This document shows, piece after piece, positions 3,138-54,870 of a DNA stretch of 64,000 nt. The stretch is from Acutalibacteraceae bacterium. Lineage in GTDB: Bacteria; Actinomycetota; Coriobacteriia; Coriobacteriales; QAMH01. Location: positions 31,487 to 95,486 of the forward strand of contig CAVDAL010000051.1 of assembly GCA_963606965.1 (NCBI GenBank), given 5' to 3'. Made by a program: the position numbers and the translations under genes. The notes under the pieces are model-generated. The model saw only the letters and a list, made by a program, of their open reading frames with translations, made no database searches and was not told where the DNA came from. Every line of letters begins with the position of its first letter. Position 1 is the first letter of the stretch.

Positions 3138-4950
3138 TGAAGCAAGTTCAAATATTGAAGAAGCTTCTGAAGTAAAAGAAGAAGCTGCAAAAAAGCCAGC
3201 TCGCAAGACGGCTGCTAAAAAATCTTCTGCAGAGAAAAAACCTGCTGCAAAAAAGCCAGCAGCTAAGAAGACAGCAACAAAAAAGACTGCTGCAAAAAAG
3301 AAGATAGAAACAGTGGAAGAAGGAACAGCTGAAGAAAAAGCTGTAAATGGTGCAGCTGAAGCTGAAGGGCAAGATAAAGCTCCTGCAAAGAAAACTCCAG
3401 CTAAACGCGGTCGCAAAAAGAAAACTGAGGCAGTTTCAAAAGAAGAAGATTTAGCCAAGGCTGAAGATGCCAAGAAAGAAAAACCAGAAAAGCCTGAAGA
3501 ATCAGAGCAAGAACATGAAGCTTCTTCTGAAGAAGATGCGCCAGATGCTTCAAGTAAAGACAAAGAGCAGGCTGCTGGTGAAGAACAAGAAAGCAGCAAT
3601 GGAGCTCGCCGCCGCATGCGTCGCAGTCGTCGCAGCAATAATAATACAAGGCGCGAGATTGTTCCTTCCGCGACAAGAGATGAACTGGCAAATCTTGCTG
3701 ACGATGAACTTGTTGCAAAAGCTGTGCTTTTAGAAGTTGATCCAACAGAATATGGCGAACGAGATGATCTTGTTTCTGCTGTTTATGATTCATTGCTTCA
3801 AGCTGAAGGCTTTGTCATGGTTGAAGGTATCCTTGACATTTTGCCTGATGGCTATGGTTTCATTCGCACAGGTGGTTACCTTCCAGGGGATCATGATGTT
3901 TATGTTGGAGCAAGCATGGTTCGCCGCAATGGCTTGCGCAAAGGCGACTATATAAACGGACGTGTTCGTCCTCCTCGTGATAACGAAAAATATCCAGCTT
4001 TAAATATGATTGTCTTGCTTAATGGCGAGCCTTTTGAAGGTCCAACTCGCCGCGTTAAGTTTGCAAACCTTACTCCAATTTATCCAGATGAACGCTTGAT
4101 TATGGAACATGGTGCAACTGGGATTACTGCTCGCGCAATAGACTTGGTTGCTCCTATTGGTAAAGGTCAGCGCGGTTTGATTGTGTCTCCGCCAAAAGCT
4201 GGCAAGACAACTGTTTTGAAAGATATTGCAGCTGCTATCAGCGCAAATGACCCAGATGTTCATTTGATGTGCTTGTTGATTGATGAACGTCCTGAAGAAG
4301 TTACAGATATGGAACGCAGCATCGATGGGGAAGTTATTTCTTCAACATTCGACATGCCATGTGAAAATCATATTGCTGTTGCTGAACTTGTTATCGAGCG
4401 CGCAAAACGACTTGTTGAAACAGGACAAGATGTTGTTATTTTGCTTGATTCAATCACGCGTCTTGCTCGTGCTTATAACTTGGGGCAACCTGCTTCTGGC
4501 CGTATTCTTTCTGGTGGTGTTGATTCCACAGCTCTTTATCCACCAAAGCGCTTTTTGGGTGCTGCAAGAAATATTGAAGGCGGCGGCTCATTGACCATTT
4601 TGGGTACTGCTCTTATTGAAACAGGCTCAAAGATGGATGAAGTTATCTTTGAAGAATTTAAAGGCACAGGCAATATGGAACTTAAGCTCGATAGAAGCCT
4701 TGCAGACAGAAGAATATTCCCAGCAATTGACCCAATTGCTTCTGGCACACGCAAAGAAGAGCTTTTGCTTGACCCACAAGAAGCTCCTTTAATTTGGGGC
4801 TTGCGCAGATTGCTTGCTAATATGAATAATCCTGAACGAGCAATGGATATGCTTGTTAAATCATTGAAGCAAACAGATAATAATCGTGAATTTTTGATTA
4901 AATCTGCAAAGAAGGCGCAAAAGAATTCTGCGGTTGCCGAAGCATTTTAA
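3130..4950 (+). CDS. rho: Transcription termination factor Rho with a ~180-aa K/A/E-rich N-terminal extension
   Basis: Core motifs 'ILPDGYGFIR', Walker A 'PPKAGKTT', 'RIFPAID'. ATG 3130 overlaps the tal stop by 8 nt; the ORF-track start at 3091 lies inside tal. Confidence 0.95.
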   Translation: MSDEASSNIEEASEVKEEAAKKPARKTAAKKSSAEKKPAAKKPAAKKTATKKTAAKKKIETVEEGTAEEKAVNGAAEAEGQDKAPAKKTPAKRGRKKKTEAVSKEEDLAKAEDAKKEKPEKPEESEQEHEASSEEDAPDASSKDKEQAAGEEQESSNGARRRMRRSRRSNNNTRREIVPSATRDELANLADDELVAKAVLLEVDPTEYGERDDLVSAVYDSLLQAEGFVMVEGILDILPDGYGFIRTGGYLPGDHDVYVGASMVRRNGLRKGDYINGRVRPPRDNEKYPALNMIVLLNGEPFEGPTRRVKFANLTPIYPDERLIMEHGATGITARAIDLVAPIGKGQRGLIVSPPKAGKTTVLKDIAAAISANDPDVHLMCLLIDERPEEVTDMERSIDGEVISSTFDMPCENHIAVAELVIERAKRLVETGQDVVILLDSITRLARAYNLGQPASGRILSGGVDSTALYPPKRFLGAARNIEGGGSLTILGTALIETGSKMDEVIFEEFKGTGNMELKLDRSLADRRIFPAIDPIASGTRKEELLLDPQEAPLIWGLRRLLANMNNPERAMDMLVKSLKQTDNNREFLIKSAKKAQKNSAVAEAF

Positions 4951-4957
4951 ATTTTTC

Positions 4958-4986
4958 TTGGAAATTTAAAAACTTGCTGGTATTAT
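4958..4986 (+). promoter_or_regulatory. Candidate rpmE promoter (TTGGAA-17 nt-TATTAT, TGg extension)
   Basis: Hexamers read directly in the rho-rpmE spacer. Confidence 0.45.
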
Positions 4987-49020: not shown

Positions 49021-49967
49021 TCGATAACAATTCAAAATGCGTGCGTTTTGCTCCGTCTCCAAGTGGCAGAATGCACTTTGGCAACATTTATTCCGCTATT
49101 TTATCTTGGCTTATTGCTCGCAAAGAAAATGCAAAATTTATAATCAGGATGGAAGATATTGATGAACGCTCCAAAAATAAGCAATATCAGAATTTAATTT
49201 TAGAAGATTTGTCATGGCTTGGACTTGATTGGGACGAAGAACCAATCATTCAGTCTGCTCGCAGCAACTATTATGAAGAAATCTTTAATGCACTTTCAAC
49301 TCAAGCGCACATTTATCCATGTTTTTGCAAACGTGCAGATTTGCATGCAGCAAGTGCGCCTCATGCAAGCGATGGCACGCCAATATATGCTGGAACTTGC
49401 AAAAATTTATCTGATGCCGATGTGGCAGAAAAATTAAAAACTAGGCAGCCTGCATATCGAATCGAAGTCCCCAATAAGGAAATTTCATTCCATGATGAAA
49501 TTCAAGGGACATACAGTCAAAATCTTGCAGGTGAGTGCGGCGATTTTGTCTTAAAAAGAAGCGATGGCATTTTTGCATACCAACTTTGCGTTGTTGCAGA
49601 TGATATTGCTCAAGGTGTAACAGATGTTGTTCGTGGCGCAGATCTTTTATCTTCAACACCAAGACAAATTTATCTATATGAACTTCTTGACAAAAATCAT
49701 CCGCGCTATTTTCATCATCCAGTTTTATTAAGCATGGACGGTAAGCGTCTTTCAAAACGTGATAAATCTTGTGATATGTCTTATCTGCTTAAGAATTTTA
49801 GTCCCCATGATCTGCTTGGTTGGGTTGCATTTTATTTAGGACAAATTGATAGTGCGCAACCTCTCACCCTGCAAGAATTGCTTGATTTATTCACCTTAAA
49901 TAATGTTCCGAATAAGTCTGCTATAATTGCTGACGCGTTTTTAAACGCTACTGCTTTGGGGGTATAG
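49017..49967 (+). CDS. gluQ: Glutamyl-Q tRNA(Asp) synthetase (truncated GluRS paralogue)
   Basis: 'RFAPSPSGRMHFGN' (HIGH-type), Zn motif 'CFC...(n)..Y.GTC', 'RLSKRD'. About 315 aa with no anticodon-binding domain. The stop TAG lies inside the tRNA. Confidence 0.85.
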   Translation: MIDNNSKCVRFAPSPSGRMHFGNIYSAILSWLIARKENAKFIIRMEDIDERSKNKQYQNLILEDLSWLGLDWDEEPIIQSARSNYYEEIFNALSTQAHIYPCFCKRADLHAASAPHASDGTPIYAGTCKNLSDADVAEKLKTRQPAYRIEVPNKEISFHDEIQGTYSQNLAGECGDFVLKRSDGIFAYQLCVVADDIAQGVTDVVRGADLLSSTPRQIYLYELLDKNHPRYFHHPVLLSMDGKRLSKRDKSCDMSYLLKNFSPHDLLGWVAFYLGQIDSAQPLTLQELLDLFTLNNVPNKSAIIADAFLNATALGV

Positions 49968-50033
49968 CTCAGCTGGGAGAGCGCATGACTGGCAGTCATG
50001 AGGTCACGGGTTCGAGCCCCGTTATCTCCACCA
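49958..50033 (+). tRNA. tRNA-Ala (anticodon GGC), CCA encoded
   Basis: Hand-folded cloverleaf: acceptor GGGGGUA/UAUCUCC with G3:U70, D arm GCUC/GAGC, anticodon stem CAUGA/UCAUG with loop CUGGCAG, T arm ACGGG-UUCGAGC-CCCGU, A73-CCA. Confidence 0.95.
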
Positions 50034-50106: not shown

Positions 50107-51624
50107 ATGGCTTATTTCTATGATGAACCCTCACATACCTTTAATGAATATTTGCTTGTTCCAGGATATTCTTCAAGCAAATGCATTCCAGATGATGTTA
50201 ATTTAACAACGCCGCTTGTTAAATATAAAAAAGGCGAAGAGCCACGTTTATCATTAAATATCCCTATGGTTTCTGCAATTATGCAATCAGTTTCTGGGCC
50301 AAAGCTTGCTGTTGCTTTAGCAAAAGAAGGCGGATGTTCATTTATTTATGGCTCACAAACTCCAGAAAATGAAGCTGCAATGGTTGCACAGGTTAAAGCA
50401 TACAAAGCTGGCTTTGTTCCAAGCGACAGCACTGTCCGTCCGGACACACAACTCAGCGAAGTTATGGGCTTAAAAGAACTTTCTGGTCATTCAACAATGC
50501 CTGTTACAGAAGATGGTTCCCCAACAGGCAAGTTAATTGGCATTGTTACAAGTCGCGATTATAGGCCTAGCCGCATGGAGCCAGATACTCCTGTTTCTGA
50601 ATTTATGACTCCACGTGAAAATTTAATTGTTGGCTATGACGGAATGTCTTTGTCTGAAGCAAATGATCTTATCTGGGAACATAAATTAAATGCTTTGCCA
50701 ATTGTTGATAAAGATAACAATCTTGTTTCTATAGTATTTAGAAAAGACTACGACTCACACAAACAAAATCCACATGAACTTCTTGATGCAAACAAGCGCT
50801 TTATTGTTGGCGCTGGCATCAACACTCGTGATTATGAAACTCGTGTTCCACTTCTTTTGGAAGCTGGCGCAGATGTTTTATGCATCGATTCATCAGAAGG
50901 CTTTAGTGATTGGCAAAAGTTCACTCTTGAATGGATTCGTGAAAATTATGGCGATTCTGTCATGGTTGGCGCTGGTAATGTTGTTGACAGGGAAGGCTTT
51001 AGATTCCTTGCTGAAAACGGTGCTGACTTCATAAAGATTGGCATCGGCGGCGGTTCAATCTGTATTACTCGTGAACAAAAAGGCATTGGCCGTGGTCAAG
51101 CAACAGCAGTTATTGAAGTTGCTAAAGCTCGCGATGAATATTTTGAAGAAACTGGCATTTATATCCCAATCTGTGCTGATGGCGGCATTGTTCAGGATTA
51201 CCACATGACGCTTGCTCTAGCTATGGGTGCAGACTTCATGATGCTTGGGCGCTACTTTGCAAGGTTCGATGAAAGCCCAACAAACAGAGTCAATGTCAAT
51301 GGTTCATATATGAAGGAATATTGGGGAGAAGGCTCTGCACGCGCTCGCAACTGGCAGCGTTATGACATGGGCGGTTCTAAAGGTCTTTCATTTGAAGAAG
51401 GCGTGGATTCTTATGTTCCTTACGCAGGCTCTTTGCATGACAATGTATCATTGAGCCTTTCTAAAGTTCGCCATACAATGTGCAACTGCGGCGCTTTATC
51501 AATTAATGAACTTCGTGAAAAAGCAAAAATTACTCTTGTTTCTTCAACATCAATTATTGAAGGCGGCGCGCACGATGTTGTTTTGAAAGACAGTGCACAG
51601 GGCTCTGGCGTACGCTTTAAATAA
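50107..51624 (+). CDS. guaB: IMP dehydrogenase
   Basis: Catalytic loop '[12 protein letters not shown]', CBS pair in aa ~95-215, 'GEGS', 505 aa. Confidence 0.95.
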
Positions 51625-52444
51625 ATTCAATTTCTTTTGTTTGAATAAGTTGCACAGCAATAGTTAATGGTGCAACAACATCATTTGAAACAGGGGAATA
51701 TTCTTCATAAAAATATTCCCCTGGTATTTCATAAAATTCTTCCATAGACTTTTTCAACCTGCCATATGTATCAGCTGGAGTCTCTCCTGACATTTGCGCA
51801 GTAACACCATAAATTCCAGCAGGGCGCACAAATTCAACCAATCCAAGCTCTTTCGCTTTAGCTTCATTTATTTTAGGGGTCTTTAAAATAAGAAGCTGCT
51901 TTTGAATGTCCAAAATGTCATTCATTACATCTTCACTTTTAAGCGTGACGGCATAAAGCTCAACTTCTTTAACAAGTTTTGCAACACCTTCAACAAGCTC
52001 TTGGTCATTCATTTCATCCAAAGCTTTTGTTGCCCACATTTTAATTTCTGGTCGTTCTTCAAGTCGAATGATCTCGCGCTTTGAATCAAAATCACCAAAG
52101 CGCAAACCGCTTGCTCCAAAAGAAGAGCTCAAAATTTTACGAACATGAATCAAATGATTGATTTTGTCATCCAAAGCTTCTAGCTTCCTTGAAACCAACT
52201 GTGATTTTTCTTCTTCATCTTCTAAAAAAAGATAATCTTTAATTTCTTGTAAAGACATCCCAGCCTCTTTCAAACAAGATATCAAAAGGAAATCTTGATA
52301 TTGTTCAAATGAATACTTGCGATAAGAATTTTCTTCAACCAGTTTTGGCTTCAGCAAGCCAATATCATCATAGTGATAAAGCGTTTGTTTCTTCACACCG
52401 CATAAATCTGCGAACTCTTTTGTGCTATATAACAAATTTTTCAT
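51617..52444 (-). CDS. MerR-family transcriptional regulator with a GyrI-like effector-binding domain
   Basis: N-terminal HTH '[28 protein letters not shown]', a coiled-coil linker and a ~150-aa C-terminal domain of BmrR/GyrI type. Confidence 0.85.
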
Positions 52445-52454
52445 AAAAAACCTC

Positions 52455-52485
52455 TTGACTCTATGGTTACCGTATACTTTACCTT
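52455..52485 (+). promoter_or_regulatory. MerR-type promoter: TTGACT, 19-nt spacer with dyad, TACCTT; overlaps the divergent merR promoter
   Basis: TTGACT at 52455-60. The 19-nt spacer CTATGGTTACCGTATACTT contains an imperfect dyad centred on GGTTACC. TACCTT at 52480-85. On the minus strand, TTGCTC (52504-52499), 17 nt, then TAAAGT (52481-52476). Confidence 0.6.
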
Positions 52486-52491
52486 GTAAAC

Positions 52492-52616
52492 AGTTTCAGA
52501 GCAAGGCTATGCCTATAAAAGGGGACAGCACATAGTTTTAACTCTGATGGAAAGTACAAACTCGATCCCTGCAAAAATTGAGTACAAGAAAAGCACTTTT
52601 AAGAGTGCTTTTTTTG
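52492..52616 (+). ncRNA. Candidate small transcript (sRNA or terminated leader) between the MerR-type promoter and an orphan terminator
   Basis: Bounded by the promoter above and the terminator at 52588-52616. Only 8-aa and 28-aa ORFs are present, without a usable SD. An internal 9-bp helix AAGGCTATG/CATAGTTTT can form. Confidence 0.3.
52588..52616 (+). terminator. Orphan intrinsic terminator upstream of the HD gene
   Basis: AAAAGCACT-TTTAAG-AGTGCTTTT hairpin followed by a T-run. No annotated plus-strand gene ends here. Confidence 0.65.
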
Positions 52617-52708
52617 TATGCTTTTACAGATAGAACGCAGCTAAAACTATAAAGAATGCTGCTTTTAAACTATAATATCCATCTAAAAAATTTTAATTGC
52701 GAGGTTTT

Positions 52709-53935
52709 ATGACTTCTAATTCAGACTTATTCCAATTCAATGAAGATGAACTTGAATTTTTGCGAATAAATGAACAAAAACAGCAAAGTCTTCTTAGCGA
52801 ATATGCTTGCAAAAATAGTGAAGGCTTGCGCGAATTTAATAAAAATTATGAAGATAAAGATTGCTATTTAGGACGCCCTTGCTTTGTTGTTGATATTGAA
52901 AAAATTCTTCATAATCCATTTTTCTCAAGATGCGCAGACAAGACGCAAGTTTTCAGTCTTGTAAAAAATGATGATGTAACGCGTCGTTCATTTCATTTGC
53001 AGCTTGTCAGCCGCGTTGGAAGAACAATAGGCCAAGCTCTTGGCTTAAATCTTGACTTGATTGAAGCAATAGCAATTGGCCATGACTTGGGACATACTCC
53101 ATTTGGCCACAAAGGCGAAGAATATTTATCCAAACTTTATTATTCACATACAAAAAGATATTTCAATCACAATGTGCAAAGCGTGCGTCTTTTAAAAACT
53201 ATGGCCCGCACTAATTTATGTCTTCAAACATATAGCGGAATTCTTGCTCATTGCGGTGAAAAAGCATTTGCAAAATACAAGCCCAAACAAATTTCTGGCT
53301 TTGATGAATTTAATGAAATTATAGAAGGCTGCTATAAAGACCAAAGCGAAATTCGCAATCTTTTGCCAAATACTTTAGAAGGTTGCGTTGTTCGAATTTC
53401 AGATATTGTTGCTTATCTTGGCAAGGACAGGCAGGATGCTGCGCGTGTCAAGCTTACAAACTTTGATATTTATGATGAATCAAACATAATTGGCCCGCTT
53501 AATCATCAAATTATTCAAAATGTAACACATAATATTATCAAACGTTCTATTGGCAAAGATTATCTTGCAATGGATGAAGAAGTTTTTGATGCATTGCAAG
53601 CATTAACAAATGAAAATTGGGAATATATTTATTCATCTGAAGAAATTAAAAACCGCATAAAATTCGTTGAACCTATGATGGAAATTTTATATGAAACTTT
53701 CTTACAAGATTTAAAAGATGGGAAGGAAGAATCGCCAATTTTTTCTCATTATGTATTGCATCCAATGCTGCATTGCGACTATACATGGGAGCTTAAAAAT
53801 CGCCCTGATGATATAGTCGTAGACTATATTGCTTCTATGACAGATGATTATTTTGTCGATTTATTTAAGCATATGTTTCCAGAAAGCAAGCTTAATGATG
53901 AAGTTTGCTATGTTCCATATTTCAAGGAAAATTAA
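52709..53935 (+). CDS. HD-domain dNTP triphosphohydrolase-like protein (Dgt family)
   Basis: 'DKTQVF', 'RRSFHLQLVSRV', 'IGHDLGHTPFGH.GE', 'FNHN.QS.R'. ATG 52709 lies 4 nt after GAGG. Confidence 0.8.
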   Translation: MTSNSDLFQFNEDELEFLRINEQKQQSLLSEYACKNSEGLREFNKNYEDKDCYLGRPCFVVDIEKILHNPFFSRCADKTQVFSLVKNDDVTRRSFHLQLVSRVGRTIGQALGLNLDLIEAIAIGHDLGHTPFGHKGEEYLSKLYYSHTKRYFNHNVQSVRLLKTMARTNLCLQTYSGILAHCGEKAFAKYKPKQISGFDEFNEIIEGCYKDQSEIRNLLPNTLEGCVVRISDIVAYLGKDRQDAARVKLTNFDIYDESNIIGPLNHQIIQNVTHNIIKRSIGKDYLAMDEEVFDALQALTNENWEYIYSSEEIKNRIKFVEPMMEILYETFLQDLKDGKEESPIFSHYVLHPMLHCDYTWELKNRPDDIVVDYIASMTDDYFVDLFKHMFPESKLNDEVCYVPYFKEN

Positions 53936-54087
53936 AAAATGTTCACAAATCCTACTGAAAATAAAGAAATTAATTGCGTTCGCGAACTTGTCTGCAGTCA
54001 TTACGTGCTTGCTATGGAGTTGCCGCGCAATCAAGCATCAATACTAGGTAAAATGATATTAAAATCCACAATCGAGGGGATGTTAAA

Positions 54088-54870
54088 ATGATTTCAGTTT
54101 TAGTTAGCGGCGCAAAAGGTCGCATGGGAACAACAATTATTTCAATGGTTGAAGACGCTGAAGATATGCAGCTTATCGCTGGAGTAGACCCAGTTGCAAA
54201 AGATAATGATACATGCGGCAATGGTGCACCAGTTTTCAAAAGTTTAGAAGAAGCTCTTAACAATGTTAAGCCAGATGTCATGGTTGACTTTACAAGACCT
54301 GACGTAGCTGAACAAAATCTTCGACTTGCTTTGAGTAAAGGAGTTAATTGCGTTTTGGGAACAACAGGCGTTTCTGAGGAACGTCTTGCAGAAATTTATG
54401 ATGAATGTGCCACGGATGGTGCAGCATTATTCTGCGCTCCAAATTTCACAACAGGAGCAGTTCTTATGATGCTATTTTCTAAGATGGCTGCAAAATATTT
54501 CCCAGATGCAGAAGTCATTGAACTTCATCACAATGGGAAAAAGGATGCTCCATCTGGCACTGCTGTTCGTACAGCGCGTTTGATTGCTGGCGCCAGAACA
54601 CAAGAGCCTCAAGCTCCTGGTAAAGAAACTGAACTTGATGGAATGGACGGCGCTCGCGGCGCGCTCGTCGATGGTGTTCCTGTTCATTCTGTTCGCACGG
54701 CTGGATATATGGCTCATCAAGAAGTTATTTTTGGAGGAATGGGTCAGACGTTAACCATTCGTCATGACTCTATTGATAGATCTTGTTACATGCCTGGTGT
54801 TGCATTAGCAATCAGGTCAATTGTTAAACAAGATGGCCTTGTAATTGGCCTTGAAAATTTGATGGATTAA
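54088..54870 (+). CDS. dapB: 4-hydroxy-tetrahydrodipicolinate reductase
   Basis: 'V.VSGAKGRMG', 'ELHHNGKKDAPSGTA', 'HS.R..G'. Confidence 0.95.
   Translation: MISVLVSGAKGRMGTTIISMVEDAEDMQLIAGVDPVAKDNDTCGNGAPVFKSLEEALNNVKPDVMVDFTRPDVAEQNLRLALSKGVNCVLGTTGVSEERLAEIYDECATDGAALFCAPNFTTGAVLMMLFSKMAAKYFPDAEVIELHHNGKKDAPSGTAVRTARLIAGARTQEPQAPGKETELDGMDGARGALVDGVPVHSVRTAGYMAHQEVIFGGMGQTLTIRHDSIDRSCYMPGVALAIRSIVKQDGLVIGLENLMD

Follow-up and report, generated by a model that had tools for sequence, protein, structure and literature searches.

A conserved structured RNA behind a MerR-type promoter in gut Coriobacteriia: candidate output of a BmrR-like regulator

The regulator gene and its divergent promoters

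The window, by which is meant the whole 64-kb stretch of DNA considered here, is represented by identical or nearly identical contigs that come from uncultured Coriobacteriales. The block of interest within it begins with guaB (50107-51624, plus strand). Next, on the minus strand (51617-52444), is the gene of a BmrR-like regulator of the MerR family, 275 amino acids long, whose N-terminal part has a winged helix and a coiled coil and whose C-terminal part has a GyrI-like fold. An intergenic region of 264 nt separates it from a plus-strand gene (52709-53935, beginning with the ATG at 52709) for an HD-domain protein of 408 amino acids that resembles dGTP triphosphohydrolases. The latter is recognized by Pfam (HD and HD_assoc) and matches the NCBIfam dGTPase models under their cut-offs. 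Beyond it lie dapB, dapA, and the gene for RNase J.

Some details of the neighborhood may be recorded here. The 3' ends of guaB and the regulator gene converge and overlap by 8 nt (51617-51624). A tRNA gene (49958-50030, plus strand; 64.7 bits) lies between a GluQ-RS-like gene and guaB. In the gap between the HD gene and dapB, an open reading frame of 50 amino acids (53939-54091, plus strand) is the deletion remnant of an M16 peptidase gene of about 415 amino acids. The M16 gene holds the same position in six related loci (L083, L084, L166, L169, L170, and L172), and tblastn aligns the remnant with residues 334-380 of the L084 peptidase at 45% identity (E = 1.7e-10).

What kind of regulator is this? 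Judged by sequence, only half of it can be named: Pfam finds MerR_1, MerR, and MerR-DNA-bind within residues 6-105 and does not recognize a GyrI-like domain in the protein, and neither NCBIfam nor a profile search of PDB sequences reaches beyond the N-terminal MerR domain. Judged by predicted fold, the rest is familiar as well. With 27 homologues as input, AlphaFold2 gives a model (pLDDT 82) whose best PDB matches in Foldseek are full-length BmrR (E = 1e-11), EcmrR, and BrlR; the model also matches isolated GyrI-like drug-binding domains, those of SAV2435 and CTR107 and the C-terminal domains of BmrR and EcmrR. Relatives with 33-36% identity to the window's protein carry the Pfam GyrI-like domain PF06445. 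The predicted structure thus supports a regulator of the BmrR/EcmrR type, with a MerR N-terminal domain, a coiled coil, and a GyrI-like effector domain. A preliminary description of this DNA had called the protein MerR/GyrI-like, a label that the predicted fold upholds for both halves and Pfam for the first half only.

MerR regulators such as BmrR, EcmrR, and CueR are described as activating, in the form of effector-bound dimers, suboptimal promoters with spacers of 19-20 bp (PMC8113463). The intergenic region contains what may be such a promoter, facing away from the regulator gene. On the plus strand TTGACT (-35, 52455-52460) is followed by a spacer of 19 nt (52461-52479), within the range given, and by TACCTT (-10, 52480-52485), from which transcription is predicted to start near 52492. 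The spacer contains the imperfect dyad TATGGT-T-ACCGTA(TA) (52462-52476), the putative operator. On the minus strand lies what reads as the regulator's own promoter, TTGCTC (-35, 52504-52499) and TAAAGT (-10, 52481-52476) separated by 17 nt, so that the two promoters overlap back-to-back. All of these elements were named in the preliminary description, and all are where it put them. On the plus strand the regulator's promoter appears as the reverse complements ACTTTA and GCAAG, which are conserved in relatives, and its overlap explains why the 5' end of the predicted transcript keeps GCAAG.

How much weight can such a promoter bear? The bare pattern of -35 box, 19-nt spacer, and -10 box is no rarer than chance, with 0.75 occurrences expected per 64 kb. 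The dyad is a different matter: a search for the pattern TATRGTWACCRTATA turns up one occurrence in the window against 0 expected. The window's dyad departs from the family consensus, TATACGGT(T/A)ACCGTATA, its left half being degenerate in the window's lineage; the operator is a perfect palindrome in L010, L013, and L086 and in many loci of Bacillota.

The surroundings of regulator homologues, taken from species-representative genomes, metagenomes, and assembly indices, provide the comparison. The layout TTGA(C/G)T-19-TAnnnT is present in all related loci, the -10 box taking the form TAYnnT in Coriobacteriia. Operator and promoter together stand upstream of about 30 homologues from Coriobacteriia and 25 from Bacillota, and they are kept across regulators that range from 87% down to about 30% identity. 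At the level of sequence it is this conservation, along with covariation in the RNA discussed below, that raises the finding above chance, not the bare promoter pattern.

A conserved structure behind the promoter

The sequence downstream of the promoter has a strong tendency to fold. The window's predicted transcript has a minimum free energy of -40.1 kcal/mol (z = -4.17), and none of 200 shuffled sequences reached so low a value. Two hairpins dominate the conserved core (52493-52590, plus strand). The first, P1 (52503-52539), is closed by nine pairs between AAGGCUAUG (52503-52511) and CAUAGUUUU (52531-52539), and its loop includes GGGACAGC (52522-52529). Around it an outer helix, P0 (52496-52547), pairs UCAGAG (52496-52501) with CUCUGA (52542-52547) in both the minimum free energy and the centroid folds of RNAfold; similar outer pairing is found in L083, L084, and L086. 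A linker leads to the second hairpin, P2 (52560-52583), in which ACUCGAU (52560-52566) pairs with AUUGAGU (52577-52583) around the loop CCCUGCAAAA, of which the family consensus is UUCCCUGCAAAG.

The core is followed by a predicted intrinsic terminator (52584-52617, plus strand), a hairpin of 15 bp with the loop UUAA and a run of U as its 3' arm. It and the nine-pair helix of P1 are both part of the minimum free energy fold. A simple scan of the window for terminators did not list this hairpin. The preliminary description had noted a hairpin with a T-run ahead of the HD gene, and it would have counted against its own proposal had that hairpin not been conserved. In sequence the hairpin is not conserved. 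Its structure is kept in all 20 members of the family compared: each has, starting 0-12 nt beyond P2, a hairpin with 13-22 pairs and an energy of -12 to -40 kcal/mol. Most have a U-rich tail, which is poor in L006, L166, L169, and L170.

Every Coriobacteriia locus with a regulator of 40-87% identity to that of the window shows the same plan downstream of the promoter, over a range of G+C from 35% to 63%. The region is present in every relative that retains the regulator; its absence from close ones was another outcome by which the preliminary description could have failed. GGGACA begins 31-37 nt past the -10 box. The stems of P1 differ completely from one lineage to another (GGCUAUG, GGGAGG, GGAGGGCA, GGCAUGU, GCAGGCGC, CUGCGGCG, GCGACCAA, and GCGGCCGC), while pairing is always retained. 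The P1 loop closes with an invariant (U)GGGACAGC, in which GGGACAG is unchanged in 20 distinct sequences. The linker varies from 20 to 80 nt. P2 takes the form GGCACUCG(A/G)-UUCCCUGCAAAG-...UGAGUGC.

Pairing that survives changes of sequence can be counted. Over the 20 distinct sequences, standard pairs occupy 92.3% of the cells, compared with 30-46% when the partners are slid out of place, in an alignment that was fitted to the covariance model and so favors the structure. An ungapped MAFFT alignment with GGGACAGC as its anchor shows the pairing equally well. Each of the nine P1 pairs has changed in both strands, and a single position may have as many as five pair types; this is the 9-bp helix that the preliminary description had noticed. 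P2 is paired in 96.6% of cells, three of its pairs are compensated, and its G-U pairs are compatible with the plus strand only. None of 500 shuffles attained the observed covariation score.

Covariance models tell how far the family can be recognized. A first model (R1), trained on 10 GC-rich members with long linkers, recovers six members on which it was not trained (L010, L166, L086, L169, L170, and L083); in the window, with its short AT-rich version, it makes only a local match to P2 (E = 0.35). A second model (R2) was built from 15 sequences. It matches the window at 52493-52590 with 26.8 bits and E = 1.1e-5 (whole window, filters off; the runner-up has E = 0.19), a score that is partly by construction, since the close relative L083 was among the 15. 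It also finds L012, L084, and L171-L173. As for L171, which lies on a contig of 1.58 Mb, the regulator is there broken into open reading frames of 156 and 102 amino acids and the M16 gene is fragmented, breaks that probably reflect frameshift errors in long-read assembly and not pseudogenes; its RNA is intact (83.5 bits).

Might the interval instead encode a small protein, or be the functionless, decaying remnant of what was once the leader of a pump gene? Two open reading frames, of 8 amino acids (beginning at 52509) and 28 amino acids (52547-52633), are where the preliminary description reported them, and the same operator does drive protein-coding genes in Bacillota. Neither frame is conserved, however, which agrees with the claim of that description that there is no credible coding sequence here. 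Within the most conserved stretch of the RNA, moreover, the window, L083, and L084 have GAU-CCCUGC where other members have GAUUCCCUGC, a difference of 1 nt, and the adjoining segments differ by lengths other than multiples of three. An indel of 1 nt at that place rules out a coding sequence. Decay fares no better: compensatory changes in the stems imply selection on RNA structure, and the element is kept across regulators down to about 40% identity. It is hard to give this alternative, in whatever reading frame, any real credence.

What lies behind the promoter is very probably a conserved, structured, non-coding RNA. It does not match any family in Rfam 15, searched with E up to 10 for the window and up to 1 for 10 relatives; the miRNA-like matches that fell on the terminator hairpin are due to chance. 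A survey of the literature found no RNA of this sort described, which is absence of evidence only, given its incomplete coverage; the one appearance of "MerR" in a paper on yjdF was the author name Merritt. Viral contigs contain six matches to a 17-mer from the P2 loop, none of them with the RNA, and the best (L181), lacking both the operator and GGGACAGC, is a chance match. I take the RNA to represent a new family, and the module to be one of MerR type whose output is a structured non-coding RNA.

One feature is peculiar to part of the family. In L003, L005-L009, L013, L166, and L010, the linker contains a segment complementary to the 3' strand of P2. The predicted energies are -18 to -24 kcal/mol in L003 and L005-L009 (z from -2.4 to -5.9 relative to shuffled linkers); L013, L166, and L010 reach only about -14 to -16 kcal/mol. 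Such an alternative helix could free the conserved loop of P2, a hint of a switch within the GC-rich subgroup. The helix is lacking in the window's lineage as well as in L086, L012, L169, L170, and L172.

Independent RNA or leader of the HD gene

The terminator stands between the RNA and the HD gene, and the preliminary description had left two choices: a small RNA or a conditional leader of the gene downstream. If the second is correct, then transcripts begun at the MerR-type promoter would stop at the terminator unless some signal sensed by the loops permitted read-through. There are facts to recommend this. In the core group of loci, the HD gene is always next, within 110-520 nt. The four members with poor U-tracts (L006, L166, L169, and L170) might allow read-through, and the pairing of the linker with the 3' strand of P2 makes a structural switch conceivable in one subgroup.

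Several points speak against it. The block guaB-merR-HD-M16-dapB is syntenic as a whole in the core group, and for this reason the adjacency of RNA and HD gene is weak evidence of a connection between them. The alternative linker helix leaves the terminator untouched and is missing from several lineages besides the window's own. The HD gene, furthermore, appears to have a promoter of its own. The preliminary description had pointed to TATAAT at 52671-52676 (plus strand) as its -10 box; the sequence is there, and even GC-rich relatives retain an AT-rich box of this kind (TAAAGT, TATAAT, or TATCTT) in the space that separates the HD gene from the terminator.

More decisive are distant loci in which no HD gene follows the RNA. 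Their regulators are 33-36% identical to that of the window and 42-50% identical to each other. In six of them (L017, L018, L174, and L178-180), the same operator and promoter precede a hairpin like P1 with UGGGACA(G/C)C in its loop, and the RNA ends in a hairpin with the loop (U)UCCCUGCA or GAACCCUGC(A/G), which is itself terminator-like. Directly after comes a convergent gene of the HTH_3 (XRE/HigA-like) type. In the compact forms (L018, reverse complement of 4783-4975, and L178/L180), the CCCUGCA hairpin doubles as the terminator. L016 and L175 represent a long form of about 330 nt that shares both loops; the long variants have insertions of 100-250 nt. As a side observation, guaB, merR, and the RNA remain together as a trio in L017, L174, and L178-180.

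With the core family these variants share only the promoter and the two loop motifs, and R2 fails to detect L016-L018. Their proposed homology relies on the shared operator and on two short loop motifs, a combination that recurs in several independent contigs.

Because the loci without an HD gene retain the promoter and both loops, the RNA should be considered independent of that gene and not its obligatory leader. The consistent placement within a 5' untranslated region that marks riboswitches and leaders is not seen, as only in the core group is the RNA followed by the HD gene. By its distribution, the RNA appears to travel with the regulator and not with the HD gene, which is probably a neighbor outside the RNA unit. 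Of the two choices offered by the preliminary description, then, the independent RNA is favored, by the HD-less loci and by the HD gene's own -10 box, and the leader becomes unlikely, its best refuge being the core group.

A probable drug-sensing module with an RNA as its proposed output

The partners of the same operator in other bacteria offer a clue as to its origin. The operator and promoter (TTGACTATACGGTWACCGTATAC-TTTA...) are found upstream of 25 MerR/GyrI homologues in Bacillota, where they are followed, in most loci after 11-100 nt, by a MATE, MFS, small multidrug exporter, GNAT, or ABC-type gene. (Loci of Bacillota with the operator include L029, L047, L053, L054, L062, L075, L082, L115, L131, and L150.) An exporter or detoxification gene of this kind is thus found with the homologues in Bacillota; in the window its place is taken by a non-coding RNA and a terminator. 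The comparison points to a single operator specificity widely common to the MerR/GyrI subfamily, and the arrangement in Coriobacteriia looks like a multidrug-sensor module in which the output has been replaced by an RNA. RNA and regulator are conserved as a pair among uncultured Coriobacteriia of the gut.

I propose that 52492-52617 encodes a structured non-coding RNA of about 125 nt that serves as the dedicated output of the divergent BmrR-like regulator, induced by the regulator's effector and acting in trans. Taken as a whole, this proposal has a reasonable, though not commanding, probability. A dimer of the regulator would occupy the dyad of the over-long 19-bp spacer. If no effector is present, the RNA promoter would be poor, and the overlapping promoter of the regulator would be autoregulated. 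Binding of a drug-like effector to the GyrI-like domain would untwist the spacer so that the -35 and -10 boxes are aligned, allowing transcription of the RNA from a start presumed to be near 52492. The intrinsic terminator that belongs to the RNA would then halt transcription ahead of the HD gene, which would have a separate promoter.

The RNA so made would display two invariant single-stranded loops, GGGACAGC on P1 and (U)UCCCUGCA on P2, held on covarying stems. The C-rich loop of P2 seems the likeliest seed for pairing with purine-rich sites in mRNA, resembling Shine-Dalgarno sequences, while GGGA of P1 could pair with the P2 loop of the same molecule. The case for action in trans, as a small RNA, stands in even balance. 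Sequences complementary to the two loops occur in the 64-kb window at the level of chance, with no target among them, and predicted duplexes between the RNA and the translation start region of the HD gene are no better than those of shuffled sequences (z from -1.5 to +1.1).

An alternative view is that the RNA itself binds a ligand, its two loops forming a kissing pocket that senses or sequesters the same class of toxic compound as does the regulator. Aptamers typically have invariant unpaired nucleotides carried by covarying stems, as is the case here, and pairing of GGG(A) in one loop with (U)CCC in the other would be possible. Guanidine-IV (mepA) riboswitches combine a kissing loop and a terminator, and they come to mind in connection with the variants L018 and L178, where the CCCUGCA hairpin doubles as terminator. 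The likeness extends to two hairpins with conserved loops that could kiss, the second serving as terminator in some variants, and to an evolutionary link with regulators of MATE-type exporters.

It is unlikely, nonetheless, that this is a riboswitch. No riboswitch family in Rfam matches the RNA, which in the core group has a separate terminator after P2 and throughout has a promoter regulated by a protein; in the variant-B loci, where the gene next to the RNA is convergent, there is no downstream gene for a riboswitch to regulate. Both loop motifs are invariant apart from a lone change of UCCC to ACCC (L016, L017, L174, and L175). That change is not compensated in GGGA, leaving the fourth pair between the loops unsupported. 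A ligand-binding RNA is a poorer prospect even than a leader of the HD gene, and an effector-induced RNA acting in trans is the reading I prefer.

It may be useful to set this preferred reading beside systems that are better known. In textbooks, MerR/BmrR-type regulators appear as switches of a single gene, serving efflux and detoxification. The bmr promoter of Bacillus subtilis, with BmrR, and EcmrR of E. coli share with the window the predicted fold of the regulator, a spacing of 19 bp between -35 and -10 boxes, a dyad in the spacer, and an adjoining regulator gene. They differ in what is transcribed, an efflux pump or detoxification gene in their case and a short structured RNA with its own terminator in this one, and in that Pfam does not recognize the C-terminal domain of the window's protein. 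In the mer operon, merR and merT likewise have overlapping promoters, back-to-back, and from the sequence one might suppose that here too a single dimer could both activate and autoregulate. Unlike MerR, the window's regulator has a coiled coil that does not end in metal-binding cysteines; its predicted sensor is GyrI-like and its output an RNA.

On the side of the RNA, the nearest comparison is with RsaE and 6C RNA, small RNAs of Gram-positive bacteria and actinobacteria with C-rich loops. They too are short, with their own promoter and terminator, and the C-rich loop, here UUCCCUGC, could pair with G-rich ribosome-binding sites. The present RNA differs from them in having no match in Rfam, in having a single C-rich loop together with the G-rich loop GGGACAGC, and in its MerR-type activator. 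No MerR-family regulator with a small RNA as its dedicated target was found in the literature, a result that, with coverage incomplete, amounts to absence of evidence only.

The broadest form of the idea is that an undescribed family of RNA has become the dedicated output of a BmrR-like multidrug sensor, that an exporter module has been rewired in a lineage of Coriobacteriia, and that the loops of the RNA either mount a post-transcriptional response to drugs or toxins or bind a ligand. In so full a form it is a tentative idea, a little short of an even chance. Coriobacteriia of the gut are noted for their metabolism of drugs and bile acids and are genetically almost untouched. If the idea is true, then the sole adjacent target of a MerR regulator in this clade is a structured RNA, which would add a post-transcriptional layer to the sensing of xenobiotics. 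The family would then offer an orphan of unusual tractability: an RNA with a defined input, through a known operator and a regulator of known fold, with two loops open to mutation and a set of variants already provided by nature.
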